Part shown: piece after piece, positions 3,506-55,465 of the stretch
Numbering within the stretch: the first letter of the stretch is position 1
Layout: every line of letters starts with the position of its first letter
Assembly (NCBI GenBank): GCA_951406725.2
Contig: OX597814.1
Location: 146,258,001-146,322,000 of the forward strand
Length of the DNA: 64,000 nt
Direction of reading: 5' to 3'
Source: Octopus vulgaris
Taxonomy: Eukaryota
Made by a program: the position numbers and the translations under genes
Notes under the pieces: generated by a model
Told to the model about the DNA's origin: nothing
The model's input: the letters and a program-made list of their open reading frames with translations, nothing else
The model's database searches: none

Positions 3506-5479
3506 ACGTTTATCGTTTATCGTATTGAACAGTAAAGTTGTACAAGAAGAAATTTTTGGGACCACGCAATACTTTCATAAGCTTAAAAAATTGTGGAAAG
3601 GATTCAGAAAAATTACGTACGGTAAATACTGAAATCTGTCGAATTGTCAAAAATGGTAAAGAAGAAAATAATTCTTTCTGTTGATACATATGTTGCTCTG
3701 AAGTTCCCACGGGGACACACACACACACACATATATTTATGTGTGTGTGTGTGTGTACACGTGTGTATAGTGCGTGTGCGTATGTGCGTGCATGCATCCG
3801 TGCGTGTATATGTGTGTGTCTGCGTGTATTTGTTCAGGTCTTTTGCGCGCGCCTATGAATAAAAACCCAAGTATAGAACTTTACTAGTAATTCAGCCTCT
3901 ATAATCGTACGTTACAAAATCTAATGTGTTATTGCAAGAGTAGCTGTGCTTTCCATAGCGTGTTGTCTTCTAAGTGAATGCTCTAGACAAGGAAATTTCA
4001 AGACATAGATTAGTATTCTAGTATTCTTATAAAGACTAAAAATGTCTGAATATATTGCATCTTATTAAGTTGTATGTAAAATCTATCTCGCATTGTCCAC
4101 TTCTTTTATTATCAACAGTCACGGACTGGTAAGTAAACATAGAATTAATTGAGTAAATTGATTGAAAGCATGCTTATACAGTCATTAGTTTACTTTCAAA
4201 AGTAAGAAAATGAAACTGTAGAGCACGCATTGAAGTGTTTTCAGATTCATGACGTTTGCTTTTACAATGATGTAAACTAAAGAGCAATCAAACAATTAAT
4301 TAATGCAAGTAATTAAAATATTCAAAGAAAATAATTAAGAATTAGAAAACAGTAAGAAAACAAATACGTACTGAGTGACTCTGTATATGTTTTCGATATT
4401 TCTTTGTCAATATAATGTTATGAAGTGTCTGAACGTTTTATAACCGTAAAAAATATATAATTCGAATACCACGAACATAACGGAAATATAGTAAACAATT
4501 CTATATTAAATATAATGATTTCTTAATTTCGATTAAACATTTTTCTGGTTCATCTCCATTAAAACAGATCACATTTATTTCATCATTATTCCGACATTCC
4601 CTGCTGATGTGTTCCATGATTCTTGGAATAAATGTTATTTGTTCGCAGTATTTTCTACTCCCATACACCTCCAGGCTAAAGTGCCTTTAAACAAGCGATT
4701 AAAAGATTCAACCTATTAAATTGTAAGTCAACACAGACCTAAGATAAATAAAAAAGCAATCAGAAGATAATTTCAAATGGTATATTTATTCATTGCATTG
4801 ATACCATTAACGATACTCCTCAAACGTTCCAAATCCTACATACTTTCACAGACGATGAGTTATTCAAATATTATTGAAGATGTGAGTTATTTAAGTGCTA
4901 TTCCAGTTTGTCTTCCAAAATAGCCGTTAAGGCCATGTGTGGCTTTCACGTAAAAGGAAATTATGAGATAACATTACTTGGTTACCTTAAGGGGCTCATA
5001 TGTGATTCATATTTGCAATCATTCAGGTAAAAGAATAAACTTTGTTCGACGGAAGTCGTATGGAGCAAGAATTATAAGTAATAAGGGTATGTAATTAAAA
5101 ATGGACAAAGTAGCGTTTATTGAACCCGCTATAATCAAATTAATTAAATTCATTAAAATGTAATTAGAGTTAGTGGAATTTAAACTAAAATCTCTTACAG
5201 GATTAACTAGCAGTGGGATGATTTTAGATTGTTACAAAGCAGATATCTGTCATTAACAATATATTAAATTAATTAAATATAAAAGAGTGATAGTTAAATA
5301 GATAGTGTCTTATATATTATGGCATGACAATAAGGTGAACCAAAAAGAAGTTTATATTTCGAAATTGCGTAATTATGTTCACAATTTACAGATATTTGTT
5401 TCGGGATATTACTTGCATACCCAAATATAATCATCATATTACCCGGCAGAAGTGACACAGCAAAGTTGCAGCAGATTAC

Positions 5480-41095: not shown

Positions 41096-42095
41096 CATAC
41101 ATACACACAAACGCACAGATAGACACATGTATATATTTTATAAATGTATTGTGTGAATGGTCGCGTAGGCGTATGGGTTTTTTTGAAACTATCTTGTTTG
41201 TTGCTCTGAAAAACAAATGCTATTTTATTCTTTTAATAAAAGTTTGAAAATTAAAATGAAATTCAAGAATTGCGTACAATATTTTATTTTAATTTCGTGC
41301 ATGGGAAGAAGATATTACTTTTAAGTAAAAACGAAATTAATCTTATCCAGGATGAGATTAAATAAATATAATTTTAATTTCTTTTGAGGATACTTGTGGC
41401 AAGCAGGAACAATATCCTTGATCGTTAAAAGCCGTGAACAAAATTACTCTTAATAATATAGTGCGTCAACAAGCTGGAAACATTCTGCCTTCAATCATCC
41501 CTTGGAGGATAGATATAAGATCAATTATCGCTAAGTGAAAACTGTTTCCGAATCACACACTTCCTACAAATATAAATAGTTATTACTCACGTGCATACAA
41601 GATATTTGCTATGCTATTTTGAAATGTTTTAACAGCTTCTCAGATCATTGTGTTAAAATAGAAACATTAAAAAATTGTTTACACTTTCACTTGTTTGTCA
41701 TGAATTTCTACGCTTGTATGTTAATATTATGCTGGCTACATCATCTAACACCATCAATGCAGGTTTAAAATTTATTTATTTTTCAATTAACATTTATTCG
41801 ACGCTTAAGAGGTGCACTTTTGTTCCCGGAAAACAAGGGATCATATCACAAAACTTCATTAGTTATTTAGAATTTTCCTATTAACATCTCGTAAACACAC
41901 ATCAAGTTACAAATGTTTCAAGCCATATGATTATGGTAGATGTTGATAGCTAATTATGGTGTCATCCACGACAAAAGACGCAATATATCATAGTGTACAA
42001 GCTGTACTCCGAGCGGCAAGGCAAATCGTAGGCAAGCAATTCGTTACGTGGGTTTCAACGTGGTGAGAGGGGCGCCAGAAAAGCTTCATATATAT

Positions 42096-42516
42096 ATTAA
42101 TCAAAATAAAAACATGACGCCAAGAATTCAGTGGTACATATGATTTGGGCATTTATTAGACGGATTTATAACAATGCATAATGTGTGTCTATGGCCTTCT
42201 TCAGTCGCGCACAATTACTACTTCAAGGACATGTATTACATCAAAAATTCTACGTTGGGGATGCAAATCCTCTCTGTCGCTTACGACATAATGTGGCGTA
42301 CGAAATATGCTGGAGCCACATTATGTCGTATGCGACTGAGAGGATTTGCATCCCCAACGTAGAATTCTTGATGTAATACATATCCTTGAAGTAGTAACTG
42401 TGCGCGGCTGAAGAAGGCCATAGACACACATTATGCATTGTTATAAATCCGTCTAATAAAGGCCCGAAACATATGTACCGCTGAATTCTTGGCATCATGT
42501 TTTTATTTTGATTAAT
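42096..42516. mobile_element. 421-bp fold-back element: 202-bp inverted arms, 17-nt loop, outward HHR motifs
   Basis: Arms 42096-42297 and 42315-42516 are colinear without indels; the left end abuts (TA)n. Confidence 0.9.
42404..42481 (+). ncRNA. Type I hammerhead ribozyme with extended stem II
   Basis: GCGG-CTGAAGA-A-GGCC-A-TAGAC...GTCTA-ATAAA-GGCC-C-GAAAC-ATAT-GTA-CCGC; predicted GUA cleavage triplet. Confidence 0.75.
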
Positions 42517-42583
42517 TTAGTCCACCACCTACACCACCAAATGGTATATACAGGTGCTTACAATTATCAAGTACTCACCCTGA

Positions 42584-45856: not shown

Positions 45857-45905
<49 letters not shown>

Positions 45906-45914
45906 GTGTGTGTG
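45560..45914. repeat. (CA)n/(TA)n compound microsatellite flanking the palindrome
   Basis: Direct reading. Confidence 0.95.
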
Positions 45915-46067
45915 ATTGTGTATAGAAGAATATATTAATAAAAAGAATTCCAACCTTGTCTGATTTTCACGTTTTATTTACAATCTTATAATGATATATT
46001 ATAAGATAATATATTATAATTGAATAAAATAAAATGAAATAGTAGAATGTTAAATATTCATTCTGAT

Positions 46068-46112
46068 TGAACTAGTATTTTCATGCATTGAATTCTGCAA
46101 TCTTCGGGTTCA
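46068..46112 (-). ncRNA. Minimal hammerhead-like motif, left arm (stem III palindrome broken)
   Basis: Mirror of 53508-53552 but reads GAAAATACTA. Confidence 0.5.
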
Positions 46113-46606
46113 TGTAGTAGTGTTGACAGTCATGCTTCACAATTTTTGACTGTAGCAAGATGAGTGATTCTGTGCTATAAATACAGCTGGGTAGGCTCCA
46201 GAGTGCTAGGTTTTGCAAACTGTATTCTGACCAATCAGTGTGTAGTATCACTCAATTACTTAAGCTGATTGGTTGGTTGAGCTGATTGGTTTAGGCATCA
46301 CGCTTTGTTGGACAGGTCAAGAGTCCTGTATCTTGACCCTGGCCGAAGCAGCAATTGTTGGGTTATTTTTAGAAATGTTGTAAATATCCTTTGTCAGAGA
46401 TTTTTATATTTTTATATTTCAATTGTCATCATCATCATTGTCAGCACCTTAATTATTGTTGCTAGTGGTGATGGTGGTGGCAATAGAACTTTTAACCCTA
46501 AATAAGATAATTTTCCTGCTATCTTCGTCTTGATCACCTTTAGTATTGTTGTTGTTGTTAGTGGTCATGGTCGTAGCAGTGGAAGTAATACCTCTAAGTA
46601 TTATTA

Positions 46607-47086
46607 TTATTGCTTATTTAGCTTGGGTTCGAATTTATCAATAAAATTCTTTTCTCTGATTTTCCTCTCGATTTCACTTGGGCTGTGTAATTTGTAGAAT
46701 GGAAATATTATATATATTTTCCGACCACATGTTGCTAGGTGGTTACTCAAAGGTATCTGACGGACCTCTGGGTCTCTAATCTGTTGCCGGTGTACACGTG
46801 AGCGTTCTAATAGTGCGTTTCCCGTCTGACCTACATATATTTCTTCACAATTTGGGCATTTGATGCAGTAAATTAAATTTCTGCTTTTGCAGTTCATATT
46901 CGCGTTTGTGAATATTTTCCCGGTTTTTGTGTTTATATATTGACCGGTATGTATGAATTGGCATGTGCCACATCGGCTATCATTGCATTTAGATACCGTG
47001 AATGTTTGGTCTTTGTTGCTGAGGTCAAATTTTGCCTTTGTTAGTAATGTTTTCAAGTTTTTAGGCTGTCTTTTACTAAGCACCAT
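46607..47086 (-). CDS. PLE Cys-rich linker and GIY-YIG endonuclease, separated from RT by an in-frame TAA
   Basis: RQPKNL, CxxxxCxxC, NLIYCIKCPNC..IYVGQT, ER..H, NH, RE..FI motifs. Confidence 0.9.
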   Translation of the reverse strand: MVLSKRQPKNLKTLLTKAKFDLSNKDQTFTVSKCNDSRCGTCQFIHTGQYINTKTGKIFTNANMNCKSRNLIYCIKCPNCEEIYVGQTGNALLERSRVHRQQIRDPEVRQIPLSNHLATCGRKIYIIFPFYKLHSPSEIERKIREKNFIDKFEPKLNKQ

Positions 47087-47110
47087 AGCTCGATCCTTGA
47101 TTATGTCTTT

Positions 47111-48934
47111 TTATTCATTACTTTGGGCAATGATTGGTAGGTTTGCTTTGGCAATGTTGAAGATATTCTGGTGACATGGGTTGTGTGTCACTATGAATGG
47201 TATGACTTGTTCTTGTTTTCCTCTTCCTTGGGTTGTCTTAAGTTGTTGTATAGGTATTTTTATAGCCCGCTGTATGCCATTTTCTATAAGTAGAGATGGG
47301 TATTTTTGTTTGAGCAAAAATTCTCTTAGTTCTATTAGGCGTTTGTTCCTGATATTTGCATCTTCTACAATAGTACAAATTCTTCTGGCTAGGCAGTATG
47401 GGATGTTACGTTTTGTATGTGGTGGATGGCACGACTTAAAATTTAGGTATTGATGTGTGTCTGTGTGTTTATAGTATATATCTGTGGTGATGGTGGTGTC
47501 TTTTTTAATTACCATTATATCCAGGAATGGTAATTTGGTACTACTCATCTCCTTTGTAAATTTGAGAGATGGGTGTAGGTTGTTCAGGAGGATATTGAAC
47601 TCTTCCAGAGTATTTAGAGATTCTGTCCAGATTATGAAACAGTCGTCTAGGTATCTCTTCCATGCCTTTTCAATATACTTTCTAAATCCAGTGCCATAGT
47701 TTACCTCCACCTCTTGGTAGAGTTGTTCTTCTAAGTATCCCATTACAGAGTTGGCGTAAACGGGAGCAAACCTCGTTCCCATCGCCGTGCCTCTAATTTG
47801 GATGTAATTCTTTCCATTGAAGAAGAATGTGTTATTTTCTAGAATAAGTTTGACTGTGTCTAATATAAATGGCACTGTGAATCTGCTGGGAATCACTTCT
47901 CTATGTTTTTCTAACCAGTATTTAATCGCCTTTATTCCTAAATCGTGTGGAATATTGGTGTAGAGGCTTACCACATCAAAACTTAGCAAAACTGAATTTG
48001 TTTCTGTTGTTTTGGGAAGATGGGACAGGAAGTCGATGTCATCCCTGATGAAACTTGGTATGTAAGTACATAGTGGTTTCAAAACAATGTCAATAAAATT
48101 GCTTAGACGGTGTGTAGGGCATGCTGGACCAGCTATAATAGGTCTAAGTTTTAGGTCTTTTGGATGTAATAATTTTATGTACTCACTTTCTTGTTCTTTT
48201 ACTGCCTGTTGAATGATTTTTGATTTGTGTATTTTTGGTAAGCCGTAGAAGTTGCTGGGTTTTGGTTCAAAATTGGTGATGTAGTCTTTTTCATTATCCG
48301 TAAGTGAGTTGTGGTGTGTTGAAATCAGGTTGTTGATCTTTTTCATGATGTGGTGGTCTATATTTGCGGGTATTTCACAATAGAAGGTTGTATCCTTCAG
48401 TTGGTCTTCAACCAAATCCTTATAGTATTCGGTATCCATAATAACAATTGCACCACCTTTATCTGCTTGTTTAATTATTATTGTTTGATCGTTTTGTATA
48501 CGTTTACATGCAGACATCTCTGATTTGCTAATGTTTGGCCTAACATTGGTATTGCGTCTAAGGGGAAATTTAGACAGGATATCAATGTATTGGTAAAGGT
48601 AGTTATTTCTTCCTTTTGGTGGGGTGAAATTTGATTTATTCCTTACTAGGGATTCATCAATCTCATTACTTTTGTTAGCGAAGAATTCTACAAGTCGTAA
48701 TTTTCGACAGAATTTTTGGATATCCTCCTTTAATTCTTGGTGGTTGGCTGTTGGTGTAGGTGTGAATTTCAGTCCTTTTGACAGAAGTTGGATTTCATCA
48801 TTGTCAAGATCTCTTTTTGATAAATTAATTATTTTAGGATCTATACGTTCAGTTGTTTGGGGTATGTTTCCTCTTGGATTTTTTCTTTCTCCGGTGTTTG
48901 TTGTCCTGACGTAAAAAAATGGATTTTTTTCTGG
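47111..48934 (-). CDS. PLE reverse transcriptase (frame open from 48934; first ATG at 48517)
   Basis: IINLS..LLSKGLKFTP, ADKGG, FYGLPKIHK, RPII, SFDVVSLYTNIP, GTAMG, RYLDD, LPFLD, YL...SCHP. Confidence 0.95.
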   Translation of the reverse strand, partial: PEKNPFFYVRTTNTGERKNPRGNIPQTTERIDPKIINLSKRDLDNDEIQLLSKGLKFTPTPTANHQELKEDIQKFCRKLRLVEFFANKSNEIDESLVRNKSNFTPPKGRNNYLYQYIDILSKFPLRRNTNVRPNISKSEMSACKRIQNDQTIIIKQADKGGAIVIMDTEYYKDLVEDQLKDTTFYCEIPANIDHHIMKKINNLISTHHNSLTDNEKDYITNFEPKPSNFYGLPKIHKSKIIQQAVKEQESEYIKLLHPKDLKLRPIIAGPACPTHRLSNFIDIVLKPLCTYIPSFIRDDIDFLSHLPKTTETNSVLLSFDVVSLYTNIPHDLGIKAIKYWLEKHREVIPSRFTVPFILDTVKLILENNTFFFNGKNYIQIRGTAMGTRFAPVYANSVMGYLEEQLYQEVEVNYGTGFRKYIEKAWKRYLDDCFIIWTESLNTLEEFNILLNNLHPSLKFTKEMSSTKLPFLDIMVIKKDTTITTDIYYKHTDTHQYLNFKSCHPPHTKRNIPYCLARRICTIVEDANIRNKRLIELREFLLKQKYPSLLIENGIQRAIKIPIQQLKTTQGRGKQEQVIPFIVTHNPCHQNIFNIAKANLPIIAQSNE

Positions 48935-50085
48935 TTATGATTTATATTCCTGTTGATGTTTGCTTGATGAATTTTGCGTTTTGGTTGTGGTACTTTACTT
49001 GGTTTCGTTATGTTTTCTGTCTTGTTTTTGGTATTATGTATGCTACTTTTCAATTTCTTGTTAGCATTGTTTTTAACCACCTGGAGAAATGATCTGGGTT
49101 TACTTCTAGATCTAGATCGGTTTTTTGTCCAGTTTCTTGTGGGTAATCTCTGTTGAGGTCTTGAAAATGATCTCCTGTTATTTCTACTGCTAATGGTCTG
49201 TTCAAAACAATATCTATTTTGTTTGTGCTTTTTGTTCATGTTGTGTGCATTAGGGTGTTTGCATACAAAATGGGAAGAGTTCTTACCGTAGTTCGTCTTC
49301 GATTCGTGGTGAAACGGGTGTTCATGTTGCCACGTGTTCTGGTGTATGTTGCGTTGGTGAGGTTGTCCACTTTTAATGCTATTTCTCGGAGTTCTGGTGT
49401 CTTTACCGTAATTTGTAGCATATTTGTCGAGAAATAATTGTTTCCGCTGCCAAAACTTTCTTGATCTGCTTTCTTCTTTTGAGATATCTCTGATCCATAG
49501 TTCTCGCATTTTTTCTGCTATATTGCCGGTCGTTAGTTTGGATATTTCATCTCTGATTTGATCATCGATAGCTTCGTATTTGGCTTTGTAGCGGGATTGT
49601 TTAGACAGGGTAATGGAGATGTCGGTCCTGAATTTTATCAAACTAAGGTCCCATCGAAGTTTAGTTTCTTCCTCTGGTTCTCCTGCAATTTCTTTAATTA
49701 GGTACTTCCGAGGAAGTATGGGTGCCGCTAAAGATATCCATTTCGAAAGTATTTCAGCATATTTTTCGCATTTATATGCCTTCCAGAAGTTTTGTTTTCT
49801 TATGTTAAGGAGTTTTTTCCATGTCTTCTGTATCTCTTCTCTTTTTCGGTGTGCCTCTTTTTCCAGATTTCTTTCGTTTATTTCTGACATCCAAGGAGGT
49901 TGTGGTAGGCTTTCTCTTGTAGATTTTATAATTGTTGGTATCATTTCAGCTAAATTCTTAATTTCAGTGTTTATGTGTTCATTTCCAAGTTTTCCGTCTG
50001 TAGACTGTTTTTCTATTTCCTTTAAAATAGAGGATTGTGTGTCAATCATCGTGATGAGTGTTGATAATTTCGATGAAATTTCCAT
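48841..50085 (-). CDS. PLE upstream ORF (at least 414 aa): helical, coiled-coil-like N half and basic low-complexity C half; 5' end may be truncated by the fold-back
   Basis: Stop-free across spacer and left arm. Codons upstream of the ATG at 50085 are only the antisense of the right arm. Confidence 0.72.
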   Translation of the reverse strand: MEISSKLSTLITMIDTQSSILKEIEKQSTDGKLGNEHINTEIKNLAEMIPTIIKSTRESLPQPPWMSEINERNLEKEAHRKREEIQKTWKKLLNIRKQNFWKAYKCEKYAEILSKWISLAAPILPRKYLIKEIAGEPEEETKLRWDLSLIKFRTDISITLSKQSRYKAKYEAIDDQIRDEISKLTTGNIAEKMRELWIRDISKEESRSRKFWQRKQLFLDKYATNYGKDTRTPRNSIKSGQPHQRNIHQNTWQHEHPFHHESKTNYGKNSSHFVCKHPNAHNMNKKHKQNRYCFEQTISSRNNRRSFSRPQQRLPTRNWTKNRSRSRSKPRSFLQVVKNNANKKLKSSIHNTKNKTENITKPSKVPQPKRKIHQANINRNINHNQKKIHFFTSGQQTPEKEKIQEETYPKQLNV

Positions 50086-50779
50086 AACGACCGGCAATAT
50101 AGCAGAAAAAATGCGAGAACTATGGATCAGAGATATCTCAAAAGAAGAAAGCAGATCAAGAAAGTTTTGGCAGCGGAAACAATTATTTCTCGACAAATAT
50201 GCTACAAATTACGGTAAAGACACCAGAACTCCGAGAAATAGCATTAAAAGTGGACAACCTCACCAACGCAACATACACCAGAACACGTGGCAACATGAAC
50301 ACCCGTTTCACCACGAATCGAAGACGAACTACGGTAAGAACTCTTCCCATTTTGTATGCAAACACCCTAATGCACACAACATGAACAAAAAGCACAAACA
50401 AAATAGATATTGTTTTGAACAGACCATTAGCAGTAGAAATAACAGGAGATCATTTTCAAGACCTCAACAGAGATTACCCACAAGAAACTGGACAAAAAAC
50501 CGATCTAGATCTAGAAGTAAACCCAGATCATTTCTCCAGGTGGTTAAAAACAATGCTAACAAGAAATTGAAAAGTAGCATACATAATACCAAAAACAAGA
50601 CAGAAAACATAACGAAACCAAGTAAAGTACCACAACCAAAACGCAAAATTCATCAAGCAAACATCAACAGGAATATAAATCATAACCAGAAAAAAATCCA
50701 TTTTTTTACGTCAGGACAACAAACACCGGAGAAAGAAAAAATCCAAGAGGAAACATACCCCAAACAACTGAACGTATAG
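50085..50779 (+). CDS. 5'-truncated copy of the PLE upstream ORF (right arm)
   Basis: TTGNIAEK...YPKQLNV is identical to the left-arm product. Confidence 0.65.
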
Positions 50780-52509
50780 ATCCTAAAATAATTAATTTAT
50801 CAAAAAGAGATCTTGACAATGATGAAATCCAACTTCTGTCAAAAGGACTGAAATTCACACCTACACCAACAGCCAACCACCAAGAATTAAAGGAGGATAT
50901 CCAAAAATTCTGTCGAAAATTACGACTTGTAGAATTCTTCGCTAACAAAAGTAATGAGATTGATGAATCCCTAGTAAGGAATAAATCAAATTTCACCCCA
51001 CCAAAAGGAAGAAATAACTACCTTTACCAATACATTGATATCCTGTCTAAATTTCCCCTTAGACGCAATACCAATGTTAGGCCAAACATTAGCAAATCAG
51101 AGATGTCTGCATGTAAACGTATACAAAACGATCAAACAATAATAATTAAACAAGCAGATAAAGGTGGTGCAATTGTTATTATGGATACCGAATACTATAA
51201 GGATTTGGTTGAAGACCAACTGAAGGATACAACCTTCTATTGTGAAATACCCGCAAATATAGACCACCACATCATGAAAAAGATCAACAACCTGATTTCA
51301 ACACACCACAACTCACTTACGGATAATGAAAAAGACTACATCACCAATTTTGAACCAAAACCCAGCAACTTCTACGGCTTACCAAAAATACACAAATCAA
51401 AAATCATTCAACAGGCAGTAAAAGAACAAGAAAGTGAGTACATAAAATTATTACATCCAAAAGACCTAAAACTTAGACCTATTATAGCTGGTCCAGCATG
51501 CCCTACACACCGTCTAAGCAATTTTATTGACATTGTTTTGAAACCACTATGTACTTACATACCAAGTTTCATCAGGGATGACATCGACTTCCTGTCCCAT
51601 CTTCCCAAAACAACAGAAACAAATTCAGTTTTGCTAAGTTTTGATGTGGTAAGCCTCTACACCAATATTCCACACGATTTAGGAATAAAGGCGATTAAAT
51701 ACTGGTTAGAAAAACATAGAGAAGTGATTCCCAGCAGATTCACAGTGCCATTTATATTAGACACAGTCAAACTTATTCTAGAAAATAACACATTCTTCTT
51801 CAATGGAAAGAATTACATCCAAATTAGAGGCACGGCGATGGGAACGAGGTTTGCTCCCGTTTACGCCAACTCTGTAATGGGATACTTAGAAGAACAACTC
51901 TACCAAGAGGTGGAGGTAAACTATGGCACTGGATTTAGAAAGTATATTGAAAAGGCATGGAAGAGATACCTAGACGACTGTTTCATAATCTGGACAGAAT
52001 CTCTAAATACTCTGGAAGAGTTCAATATCCTCCTGAACAACCTACACCCATCTCTCAAATTTACAAAGGAGATGAGTAGTACCAAATTACCATTCCTGGA
52101 TATAATGGTAATTAAAAAAGACACCACCATCACCACAGATATATACTATAAACACACAGACACACATCAATACCTAAATTTTAAGTCGTGCCATCCACCA
52201 CATACAAAACGTAACATCCCATACTGCCTAGCCAGAAGAATTTGTACTATTGTAGAAGATGCAAATATCAGGAACAAACGCCTAATAGAACTAAGAGAAT
52301 TTTTGCTCAAACAAAAATACCCATCTCTACTTATAGAAAATGGCATACAGCGGGCTATAAAAATACCTATACAACAACTTAAGACAACCCAAGGAAGAGG
52401 AAAACAAGAACAAGTCATACCATTCATAGTGACACACAACCCATGTCACCAGAATATCTTCAACATTGCCAAAGCAAACCTACCAATCATTGCCCAAAGT
52501 AATGAATAA
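50686..52509 (+). CDS. PLE reverse transcriptase (frame open from 50686; first ATG at 51103)
   Basis: Same motifs as the left arm. Confidence 0.95.
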   Translation, partial: PEKNPFFYVRTTNTGERKNPRGNIPQTTERIDPKIINLSKRDLDNDEIQLLSKGLKFTPTPTANHQELKEDIQKFCRKLRLVEFFANKSNEIDESLVRNKSNFTPPKGRNNYLYQYIDILSKFPLRRNTNVRPNISKSEMSACKRIQNDQTIIIKQADKGGAIVIMDTEYYKDLVEDQLKDTTFYCEIPANIDHHIMKKINNLISTHHNSLTDNEKDYITNFEPKPSNFYGLPKIHKSKIIQQAVKEQESEYIKLLHPKDLKLRPIIAGPACPTHRLSNFIDIVLKPLCTYIPSFIRDDIDFLSHLPKTTETNSVLLSFDVVSLYTNIPHDLGIKAIKYWLEKHREVIPSRFTVPFILDTVKLILENNTFFFNGKNYIQIRGTAMGTRFAPVYANSVMGYLEEQLYQEVEVNYGTGFRKYIEKAWKRYLDDCFIIWTESLNTLEEFNILLNNLHPSLKFTKEMSSTKLPFLDIMVIKKDTTITTDIYYKHTDTHQYLNFKSCHPPHTKRNIPYCLARRICTIVEDANIRNKRLIELREFLLKQKYPSLLIENGIQRAIKIPIQQLKTTQGRGKQEQVIPFIVTHNPCHQNIFNIAKANLPIIAQSNE

Positions 52510-52533
52510 AAAGACATAATCAAGGATCGAGCT

Positions 52534-53013
52534 ATGGTGCTTAGTAAAAGACAGCCTAAAAACTTGAAAACATTACTAACAAAGGCAAAATTTGACCTCA
52601 GCAACAAAGACCAAACATTCACGGTATCTAAATGCAATGATAGCCGATGTGGCACATGCCAATTCATACATACCGGTCAATATATAAACACAAAAACCGG
52701 GAAAATATTCACAAACGCGAATATGAACTGCAAAAGCAGAAATTTAATTTACTGCATCAAATGCCCAAATTGTGAAGAAATATATGTAGGTCAGACGGGA
52801 AACGCACTATTAGAACGCTCACGTGTACACCGGCAACAGATTAGAGACCCAGAGGTCCGTCAGATACCTTTGAGTAACCACCTAGCAACATGTGGTCGGA
52901 AAATATATATAATATTTCCATTCTACAAATTACACAGCCCAAGTGAAATCGAGAGGAAAATCAGAGAAAAGAATTTTATTGATAAATTCGAACCCAAGCT
53001 AAATAAGCAATAA
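52534..53013 (+). CDS. PLE Cys-rich linker and GIY-YIG endonuclease, same frame as RT after TAA 52507-52509
   Basis: Reads aat gaa TAA aaa gac ata atc aag gat cga gct atg. Confidence 0.9.
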   Translation: MVLSKRQPKNLKTLLTKAKFDLSNKDQTFTVSKCNDSRCGTCQFIHTGQYINTKTGKIFTNANMNCKSRNLIYCIKCPNCEEIYVGQTGNALLERSRVHRQQIRDPEVRQIPLSNHLATCGRKIYIIFPFYKLHSPSEIERKIREKNFIDKFEPKLNKQ

Positions 53014-53330
53014 TAATAATACTTAGAGGTATTACTTCCACTGCTACGACCATGACCACTAACAACAACAACAATACTAAAGGTGATCAAGACGAAGATA
53101 GCAGGAAAATTATCTTATTTAGGGTTAAAAGTTCTATTGCCACCACCATCACCACTAGCAACAATAATTAAGGTGCTGACAATGATGATGATGACAATTG
53201 AAATATAAAAATATAAAAATCTCTGACAAAGGATATTTACAACATTTCTAAAAATAACCCAACAATTGCTGCTTCGGCCAGGGTCAAGATACAGGACTCT
53301 TGACCTGTCCAACAAAGCGTGATGCCTAAA

Positions 53331-53444
53331 CCAATCAGCTCAACCAACCAATCAGCTTAAGTAATTGAGTGATACTACACACTGATTGGTCAGAATACAG
53401 TTTGCAAAACCTAGCACTCTGGAGCCTACCCAGCTGTATTTATA
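53331..53444 (+). promoter_or_regulatory. Candidate pseudo-LTR promoter: three CCAAT boxes and TATTTATA (mirrored at 46176-46289)
   Basis: ccaatcagc twice (53331, 53348), ctgattgg (about 53382), TATTTATA at 53437-53444 (TATAAATA on minus). Confidence 0.4.
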
Positions 53445-53507
53445 GCACAGAATCACTCATCTTGCTACAGTCAAAAATTGTGAAGCATGACTGTCAACAC
53501 TACTACA

Positions 53508-53552
53508 TGAACCCGAAGATTGCAGAATTCAATGCATGAAAGTACTAGTTCA
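53508..53552 (+). ncRNA. Minimal type I hammerhead-like motif in the PLE 3' region, CCGA core variant
   Basis: TGAAC-CCGAAGA-T-TGCA-gaattcaa-TGCA-T-GAAA-GTAC-TA-GTTCA: 5-bp stem I, 4-bp stem II, palindromic AGTACT. Confidence 0.62.
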
Positions 53553-53719
53553 ATCAGAATGAATATTTAACATTCTACTATTTCATTTTATTTTATTCAA
53601 TTATAATATATTATCTTATAATATATCATTATAAGATTGTAAATAAAACGTGAAAATCAGACAAGGTTGGAATTCTTTTTATTAATATATATATATATAT
53701 ATATATATACATAAATATC

Positions 53720-54075: not shown

Positions 54076-55465
54076 ATGGATCCTAAGATGGTTAGTGCAA
54101 AGGATAATGCTGAGAAAAAAGAAAAAGCTGATTGCGATAGAATTGAAGAAGGAATTCTCTGATAAATAAGAGAGAGGAGTGTATGTAGTGGACATAGCAT
54201 ATTGATACGACCGAAACAAGTCGATGATCTTCACCATCCCGAATAAAAAAGGACGAGATCAAAGCCGTTGCAACAACATAGGATCTGTCCAGGCTCACTA
54301 AGCAACGCACATGTGACCACGAAATTATGGTAAAATAGTTCTATGGATCAACGAGAAGCAACCCGCAGCGCATACGATTACAGAGACCATCATCTGCGAG
54401 AAATCGCGAACGCTGTATTAGGATCTCCTGAAGCAGAACCCTGGAACATTACAGGACTGGTGTTTATAGCGTCGTCAGGTATGGAGAAGCAGCGAGTTGT
54501 GACACGAAGGCACCTGAATATTTCTTACGCAAATCCCGTCAGCTCATCGCAACCGAGGATTGCACCACACAACAAGTATTCAACTGTGCTGAAACTGGCC
54601 TCTTTTTGTGGGAAAAATGTCCAGACAAACCTACATAACTGTAGATCAGAAGAAAATGCCAGGCCACAAGCGTATGAAAGATAGGCTAACTCTCACCCTT
54701 TGTGCCAATGCGAGTGGAGACTTGAATATTAAGCCGCTCCTTGTCTACCATTTCAAGTCGCACAAAATTTTGTTGCAGGTCATATGGAGTGCAAACATCA
54801 AAGCCGGGGTCACCAGGCAATTTTTCTCCAAGTGGGTCAACCTTGTATTCGGACCAGCAATGGAAAAGTACCTTCTGGAGAACAATCTTCCTCTCAAAGC
54901 TTCTGCTCACCCTCCTAACCTCGAGGATGATATCCTGGACGAATTAAAATTTAGAAACGTTATTTACATTACTTGCAGCACCACCCCTACCTCGCAGCCC
55001 ATGGACTAACAGGTGATTTCTAATTTTAAAAAAAATTGTACACCATACAACTGTTTCGTCGGTGCTTGGAAGTCACCGAAAACACAAATCTAACCTTCCG
55101 TGACTTTTGGGAAGATTACTACAGCATAGGAAATTGCCTGAAAATCATCGATATGACCTGACAGGGTGTAACGCAGAGTTCTGCATGGAAGAAACTGCTG
55201 CTTGGCTGCATATCCGAAAGAAAATTCGAGGGGTTTCAGTGCGAGACTTGTCTCTTGGCAAGTCCATGGGCATCGAGGTTTGTTGAGGGAATATTAACGA
55301 TCCCGTCAAGGAACACTCAGTGGAGCTGACGACAGATGAACTCCTGCAGCATCAGGAGCAGCAACATTTGGATGCGGTGGAAGGGATTGGTTCTATGGCG
55401 GAGGACAGTGTAGCAGAGAATGTTATCACCACGAGTGACATAAAGGCAGTGATAGCAAAGTGACG
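54076..55465 (+). pseudogene. Tigger/pogo (TIGD1-like, DDE_1) transposase remnant
   Basis: MDPK..., QQVFNCAETGLF, TYIT..K.MPGHK.MKDRLTLTLCANASGD..KPLLVYH, QPMD; multiple frameshifts and stops. Confidence 0.88.

Follow-up and report, generated by a model that had tools for sequence, protein, structure and literature searches.

An imperfect 13-nt inverted match at the junction of a head-to-head Penelope-like retroelement in Octopus vulgaris

A 64-kb stretch of Octopus vulgaris DNA (the window; animal DNA, rich in microsatellites) carries a Penelope-like retroelement (PLE) with a reverse transcriptase (RT) plus, at its C terminus, a GIY-YIG endonuclease, inserted head-to-head. Its two copies meet at an imperfect inverted match of 13 nt, and the junction was very probably created by base-pairing there. 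The homology sets the position of the inversion, and the pairing possibly took place within a single molecule. We put the probability that the dimer arose by fold-back of a truncated first-strand cDNA at an (AT)n tract at about one half; the weights given to this and to the other mechanisms are judgements and were not computed. Inverted PLE copies and the idea of self-priming have already been published; the junction at this locus is real and well resolved, and the structure that contains it is of a known kind.

The window contains a single long inverted repeat, consisting of two arms of 3606 nt each, at 45930-49535 and 50085-53690, and a single-copy spacer of 549 nt (49536-50084, minus strand). 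The left arm, sense on the minus strand, represents the 3′ 3606 nt of the PLE. The spacer is native ORF1 sequence located immediately 5′ of this arm, as judged from contigs of public sequencing runs and from an alignment of ORF1 homologues. The right arm (plus strand) is a second, inverted copy that is more 5′-truncated. The arms are arranged head-to-head, with their 5′ ends facing each other and with the 3′ end of the element, at ATATAT, as the outer end on both sides. The flanks beyond the two arms are mutually unrelated, and the inversion ends at the element 3′ end on each side. No second copy of the element was found elsewhere in the 64-kb window. The locus shows the inverted 5′-truncated copy adjoining the 5′ end that characterizes endonuclease-containing (EN+) PLEs. 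A direct repeat (pLTR tandem) is absent from the insertion, as expected with 5′ truncation; the native contigs stop 47-99 nt upstream. Compared with each other, the arms are identical at 3605 of 3606 positions, the sole mismatch being 46078/53542. Since one mismatch in 3606 nt implies a short time, the insertion is very recent.

ORF1 (48841-50085, minus strand) is 5′-truncated at an internal Met and ends where five homologues end. The RT frame (50686-52509, plus strand; mirror 47111-48934 on the minus strand) lies in -1 relative to ORF1 and matched RVT_1 with an E-value of 1.5e-6, slightly below the curated cut-off. It closes with an in-frame stop, behind which a Cys-rich linker and the GIY-YIG endonuclease (52510-53013, plus strand; mirror 46607-47110) follow in the same frame; the endonuclease matched PF01541 above the cut-off (E 2.3e-6). 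This stop between RT and endonuclease is present in both arms (52507-52509 and 47111-47113), and relatives read through. Relatives with up to 66% identity carry both the RT and the GIY-YIG domain, and the nearest named protein relatives of the element are molluscan. The CCHH signature of EN+ PLEs was recovered (Cys pairs inside the core, IY...YVG, together with His at 106 and 123, in conserved columns), and the linker between RT and endonuclease fits the CX2-5CxxC definition for Neptune and Nematis (PMC8557442). On these sequence features, the element is classified as an endonuclease-containing PLE whose linker is of the type defined for the Neptune and Nematis clades.

In all seven overlaps examined, ORF1 overlaps the RT frame in -1 (window 50686-50779 with its mirror 48841-48934, and the related loci L001, L002, L003, L008, L009, and L081; L007, L013, and L061 were too broken to judge and were omitted). 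Five of the seven carry, in the ORF1 frame, a slippery heptamer of the strict type, and the remaining two read T TTT TTG. In the window, the heptamer at 50701-50707 (plus strand), in the ORF1 frame and within the ORF1/RT overlap, is a candidate -1 frameshift site. No significant downstream structure was detected at five sites (z between -0.96 and +1.54). The offset between ORF1 and RT fits programmed -1 frameshifting. Its interpretation as damage or as a new feature was rejected because the offset is conserved and because the legend of Fig. 1 in PMC8557442 already notes a -1 ORF1/RT frameshift.

At the junction, the initial annotation had read the native element on the minus strand (49551-49531) as GATGAAATATCCA-AAC-TAACG and the joined sequence on the plus strand (50072-50089) as GATGAAATTTCCA-TAACG; both strings were confirmed at these coordinates. 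The last 13 nt of the antisense strand (site A, 50072-50084, plus strand), which include an 8-nt palindrome at 50075-50082, are complementary at 12 of 13 positions to their annealing partner (site B, 49539-49551, plus strand), with 520 nt between the sites. Three nucleotides (49536-49538, plus strand) are skipped at the junction and missing from the right arm. They are followed by a single shared base, T50085 (plus strand), found both in the native antisense sequence and in the right arm, so that the exact microhomology is 1 nt. The annotated 12/13 inverted match with a 3-nt gap was correct, with the homology past the gap limited to this T. Likewise, the segment described as 13 nt of antisense spacer is native antisense sequence but measures 14 nt, since T50085 belongs to both sides.

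The native order was examined in 4 of 20 public runs containing the stretch (X8, X1, X6, and X10), compared over 49536-51000. In each of the four, one contig links 49536 to 50085 on opposite strands, and spacer followed by arm is thus the native order. The contigs of all four runs also extend behind 50085 by 47-99 nt; the first 30 letters are alike and begin TAGAATT, not AACG. With the native sequence reading TAGAATT, an extension of the homology over the 3-nt skip by native upstream sequence was rejected. Read by eye, these 30 letters are in the ORF1 frame and give TKLTESERIL versus TRITESERIL in the homologue P0002, just before the aligned residue. As the native frame continues upstream of 50085, the ATG at the junction is internal and the insertion copy is 5′-truncated there. 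The same run contigs and P0002 alignment led us to reject this ATG as the start of ORF1. The suggestion that the motif is native and continues upstream was hence borne out: the spacer is native 5′ sequence, in frame and, in four of four runs, unlike the junction.

The window's own junction was in no contig among the pieces listed (19 of 22) for the four runs, a weak observation because contigs drop rare variants. No run on record as RNA was listed among those containing the stretch, which has no bearing on expression. Two spacer bases, 49748 and 49968, differ from all four public runs, and the base at 49748 extends a 6-nt palindrome to 8 nt. The segment 50085-51000 exactly matches three of the four runs and shows no private changes against them. 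Two differences in the spacer versus none in the arm stretch is not a significant contrast (Fisher 0.14).

As a null model for the match, every (stop, resume) pair in the first strand of the element was scored, allowing a skip of at most 5 nt and trimming of 1 nt. A score of 10, as observed at the junction, was reached by 135 of 8,427,565 pairs (1.6e-5); four alternative scoring rules gave fractions of 2.9e-5 to 2.1e-4. Only 0.4% of 3′ ends had a site scoring at least 10 anywhere upstream, and for the observed 3′ end, site B was the top site (10 versus 7 for the next). Sites A and B also form the best duplex by DNA energies (-11.1 versus -9.5 kcal/mol), which was equalled by 1 of 150 random 14-mers. 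Within the folded single-stranded spacer, the A/B duplex has a probability of about 0.5%, and a local hairpin at 50066-50080 competes with it. It is the combination of a match far beyond chance with a native motif that makes base-pairing at the site the very likely cause of the junction. The earlier proposal that microhomology explains the inversion by an intramolecular template switch was thus sustained in part: the homology is non-random (1.6e-5, or 2.1e-4 at worst) and native, but the same 13 nt also fit intermolecular joining.

A survey of inverted junctions covered 87 related loci (80 of 405 metagenome matches and all 7 genome matches). An inverted arm flanking a PLE frame was found at six of the 87 loci. 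Since L052 and L060 share the same junction, five are distinct; inverted repeats of L021, L028, and L087 do not adjoin the PLE frame and were omitted from the count. The five junctions scored 2, 1, 1, 4, and 1, versus 10 at the window locus; they come from distant families, with proteins 26-31% identical to those of the window. For two of them, another copy supplies the native upstream sequence and the exact overlap can be read: 3 nt at L052 (upstream sequence from L050, loop of 1.1 kb) and 0 nt at L035 (from L059, loop of 1.8 kb). At L039, the spacer measures 5.3 kb and is possibly non-native. An enrichment of microhomology at other inverted junctions, proposed as a check in the initial annotation, did not appear in these distant families (a long match at none of five), which indicates that PLEs do not as a rule have long imperfect matches at such junctions. 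One distant PLE, L022, has a hairpin (26 bp, 4-nt loop) where its RT frame starts, the sole such hairpin beside a PLE frame among the 87 loci.

According to the fold-back model, the endonuclease would nick the plus strand near 45930, at the (AT)n tract, and the RT would copy the RNA from its 3′ end to 50085, halting inside ORF1 so that the copy is 5′-truncated. This first-strand cDNA would then anneal to itself, its free 3′ end pairing at 49539-49551 (12/13 pairs) and closing a loop of 520 nt. By slipping three template bases, its last T would come to pair with A49535, and the annealed 3′ end would prime synthesis back along the cDNA up to the starting nick. The 3′ end of the resulting second, sense arm would land beside the nick, where it could be joined to the right flank. 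We infer the order of these events, the pairing within one molecule, and the polymerase, which may be the element's own RT or one supplied by the host, for example Pol theta.

Several observations favour fold-back. The arms, identical at 3605 of 3606 positions and with a common in-frame stop that may be private to this insertion, look as expected if one templated the other. The homology is non-random and the best in the strand, the spacer is native and truncated exactly at the junction, and the inversion ends at the element 3′ end on both sides, between unrelated flanks. The hairpin of L022 has a shape that two 3′-primed cDNAs cannot give. Furthermore, self-priming has been inferred for head-to-head palindromes of rotifer PLEs (PMC3846280), and Pol theta snap-back extends minimally paired 3′ ends (PMC8391894). 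Other observations disfavour it. Pairing at the 3′ end is poor, with one base pair behind a 3-nt template bulge; self-priming in register would retain AAC, whereas the actual product lacks these 3 nt. The A/B duplex is improbable in the folded spacer (about 0.5%), and none of the five other distinct junctions has a long match, their overlaps of 0-3 nt being better suited to end-joining of two cDNAs. The single base by which the arms differ is explicable only by later mutation or error, and no contig in the four runs showed the junction.

The same match could also have joined two molecules. If both target strands were nicked and each 3′ end primed an antisense cDNA from an RNA's 3′ end, the two cDNAs could anneal at the 12/13 site and prime each other's second strand, a route that we regard as possible but doubtful. 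In vitro, the PLE protein of an anole, modelled as a dimer, nicks both strands and extends them, and the tail is defined by the two neighbouring sites on the RNA at which it starts (PMC11167929). At the window locus, such double priming is in line with the joining of both flanks to the element 3′ end and with an AC-rich stretch of 26 nt outside one arm only, and elsewhere with the overlaps of 0-3 nt across long loops at the other inverted junctions. The inactivating stop common to both arms would, however, call for two RNAs of one defective source or for later conversion, and the 26 nt, which occur once in the window, may be target DNA instead of element. Rather improbable, in our judgement, is a later central deletion, by which microhomology-mediated repair would have removed the centre of an initially longer or spacer-less palindrome and left the stabilising 549-nt spacer. 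Sites A and B would then be imperfect direct repeats across the centre, on the plus strand of the presumed longer palindrome. Instability is greatest in long palindromes whose arms are nearly identical and lie close together around a short spacer (PMC7999016), and Penelope copies of rotifers commonly show deletions mediated by microhomology (PMC3846280). Yet two events would have to fit into the short time implied by 1 mismatch in 3606 nt, and the former centre left no trace.

A library or assembly artefact (a fold-back chimeric read, an amplification chimera, or a mis-resolved repeat) is unlikely as the source of the junction, at long odds. Amplification chimeras also use microhomology, and the absence of the junction from the contigs of four runs would agree with an artefact, if weakly, as contigs drop rare variants. 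A fold-back read, however, would mirror the flank too, whereas the inversion halts at the element 3′ end, left and right, and gives way to unrelated flanks; moreover, the arms are not identical, and the layout is that of a textbook PLE (PMC8557442). Hardly any weight is left for coincidence, in which randomly placed truncation points would have been end-joined bluntly or through 1 nt, and the 12/13 match would have been aided by the palindromic core and by the E-I-S encoded at both sites. The exact crossover overlap is indeed only 1 nt, as at other junctions, and the finding was chosen post hoc out of a very large scan; but a null built from the element's own sequence includes such features, and the fraction is still 1.6e-5 to 2e-4. 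A single junction cannot decide which joining route acted.

Extending fold-back beyond this locus, PLE dimers might arise from a single nick: a truncated first-strand cDNA would pair imperfectly hundreds of bases back, copy itself to the nick, and be ligated as a giant hairpin, without antisense RNA or a second cleavage, and inverted matches in ORF1 would be recurrent hotspots. We offer this generalization tentatively and consider it doubtful. If true, pre-existing inverted matches in ORF1 would fix the position of the inversion.

In L1 twin priming, a non-overlapping 5′ piece is inverted through internal priming, and two cDNAs are joined through microhomology. Two primed cDNAs and microhomology at an internal inversion junction are points of likeness to the present locus. 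An inversion of the L1 type was nevertheless rejected because the 3′ 3606 nt are present in each arm, so that the 3′ part is duplicated. In inverted duplications and foldbacks associated with L1, a self-annealed 3′ end likewise primes the inverted duplication, but it is flanking DNA that is duplicated, in most cases with a small hairpin and a microhomology of about 2 nt, whereas here it is element cDNA and not the flanks (bioRxiv 2024.12.14.628481; PMC10191854). EN+ PLEs with an inverted 5′-truncated copy (PMC8557442; PMC3846280) resemble the locus in RT and C-terminal GIY-YIG, 5′ truncation, head-to-head copy, AT-microsatellite target, and a possible one-sided tail. Their inverted copy is a pLTR of 200 bp and the junction a small palindrome, whereas here the inverted copy spans 3.6 kb (87% of the longer copy), with a 520-nt loop, an imperfect 13-nt match, and no direct pLTR tandem.

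For rotifer PLEs, head-to-head repeats have been ascribed to self-priming on an antisense template (PMC3846280). This Penelope model shares with ours a strand that primes on itself and gives head-to-head repeats; there, the antisense template is tied to bidirectional transcription, whereas here it would be truncated first-strand cDNA, cut inside ORF1. Snap-back and microhomology-mediated end-joining by Pol theta similarly extend, in cis or in trans, 3′ ends with minimal pairing, and full-length Pol theta prefers intermolecular joining to snap-back (PMC8391894). A literature search, mostly without subscription papers and without supplements, returned no report of a PLE inverted junction at which an imperfect microhomology spans a long loop, and the available part of bioRxiv 2026.07.22.740005 holds nothing on inverted junctions. 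The origin of tandem and inverted PLE structures is named as open in PMC8557442, and steps after first-strand synthesis are described as unvalidated in PMC11167929. The dimer is very young, its junction is resolved to the base, and the native sequence is known; it therefore offers a concrete substrate on which sites A and B could be tested both in cis and in trans, a good test case rather than a new system.

At the left end of the insertion, the 26-nt AC-rich stretch (45904-45929, minus strand) lies outside the left arm only and may be a PLE tail or target DNA; EN+ PLEs have an optional tail of 30-40 nt, and the one-sided stretch seen here is a single occurrence in the window. The right end lies at the (AT)n target tract (53685-53711). 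A target-site duplication may be represented by the ATATAT found at 45930-45935 and again at 53685-53690, but this is ambiguous because ATATAT is self-complementary. Within the 3′ terminal region, a hammerhead-like motif with a variant core was read by eye at 53508-53551 (plus strand). Its stems I and II fold, but not significantly (z -0.18), and it had no Rfam match; Rfam matches near the locus were discarded as microsatellite noise. The arm mismatch 46078/53542 lies inside this motif, directly behind its GAAA. The right-arm base at 53542 yields a short palindrome, as in L001, and owing to this resemblance the left-arm base at 46078 looks derived or an error.

Among the surveyed loci, L052 (1-10092) and L060 represent a PLE dimer that is distant from the window element but shares its topology, with a spacer of 1101 nt. 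The inverted arm of L052 holds an inserted element of 6.4 kb with direct repeats of 518 nt at its ends and a frame of 1541 aa. A near-perfect palindrome of 346 nt with a very small loop was noted in L028 (2269-2614), about 4 kb from the PLE frame, and may be unrelated to the PLE. No relatives were found in viral contigs among 115 pattern matches. L081-L087 are PLE relatives on short contigs of bacterial MAGs, and several protein matches are labelled as bacterial symbionts; the PLE relatives in these bins are most likely host DNA. In the neighbourhood of the insertion, a decayed DDE_1 (pogo/Tigger-like) transposase fragment lies to the right (54593-55009, E 7e-11), and a separate inverted repeat is located at 42093-42519, with arms of 205 nt that are 94% complementary and a spacer of 17 nt.
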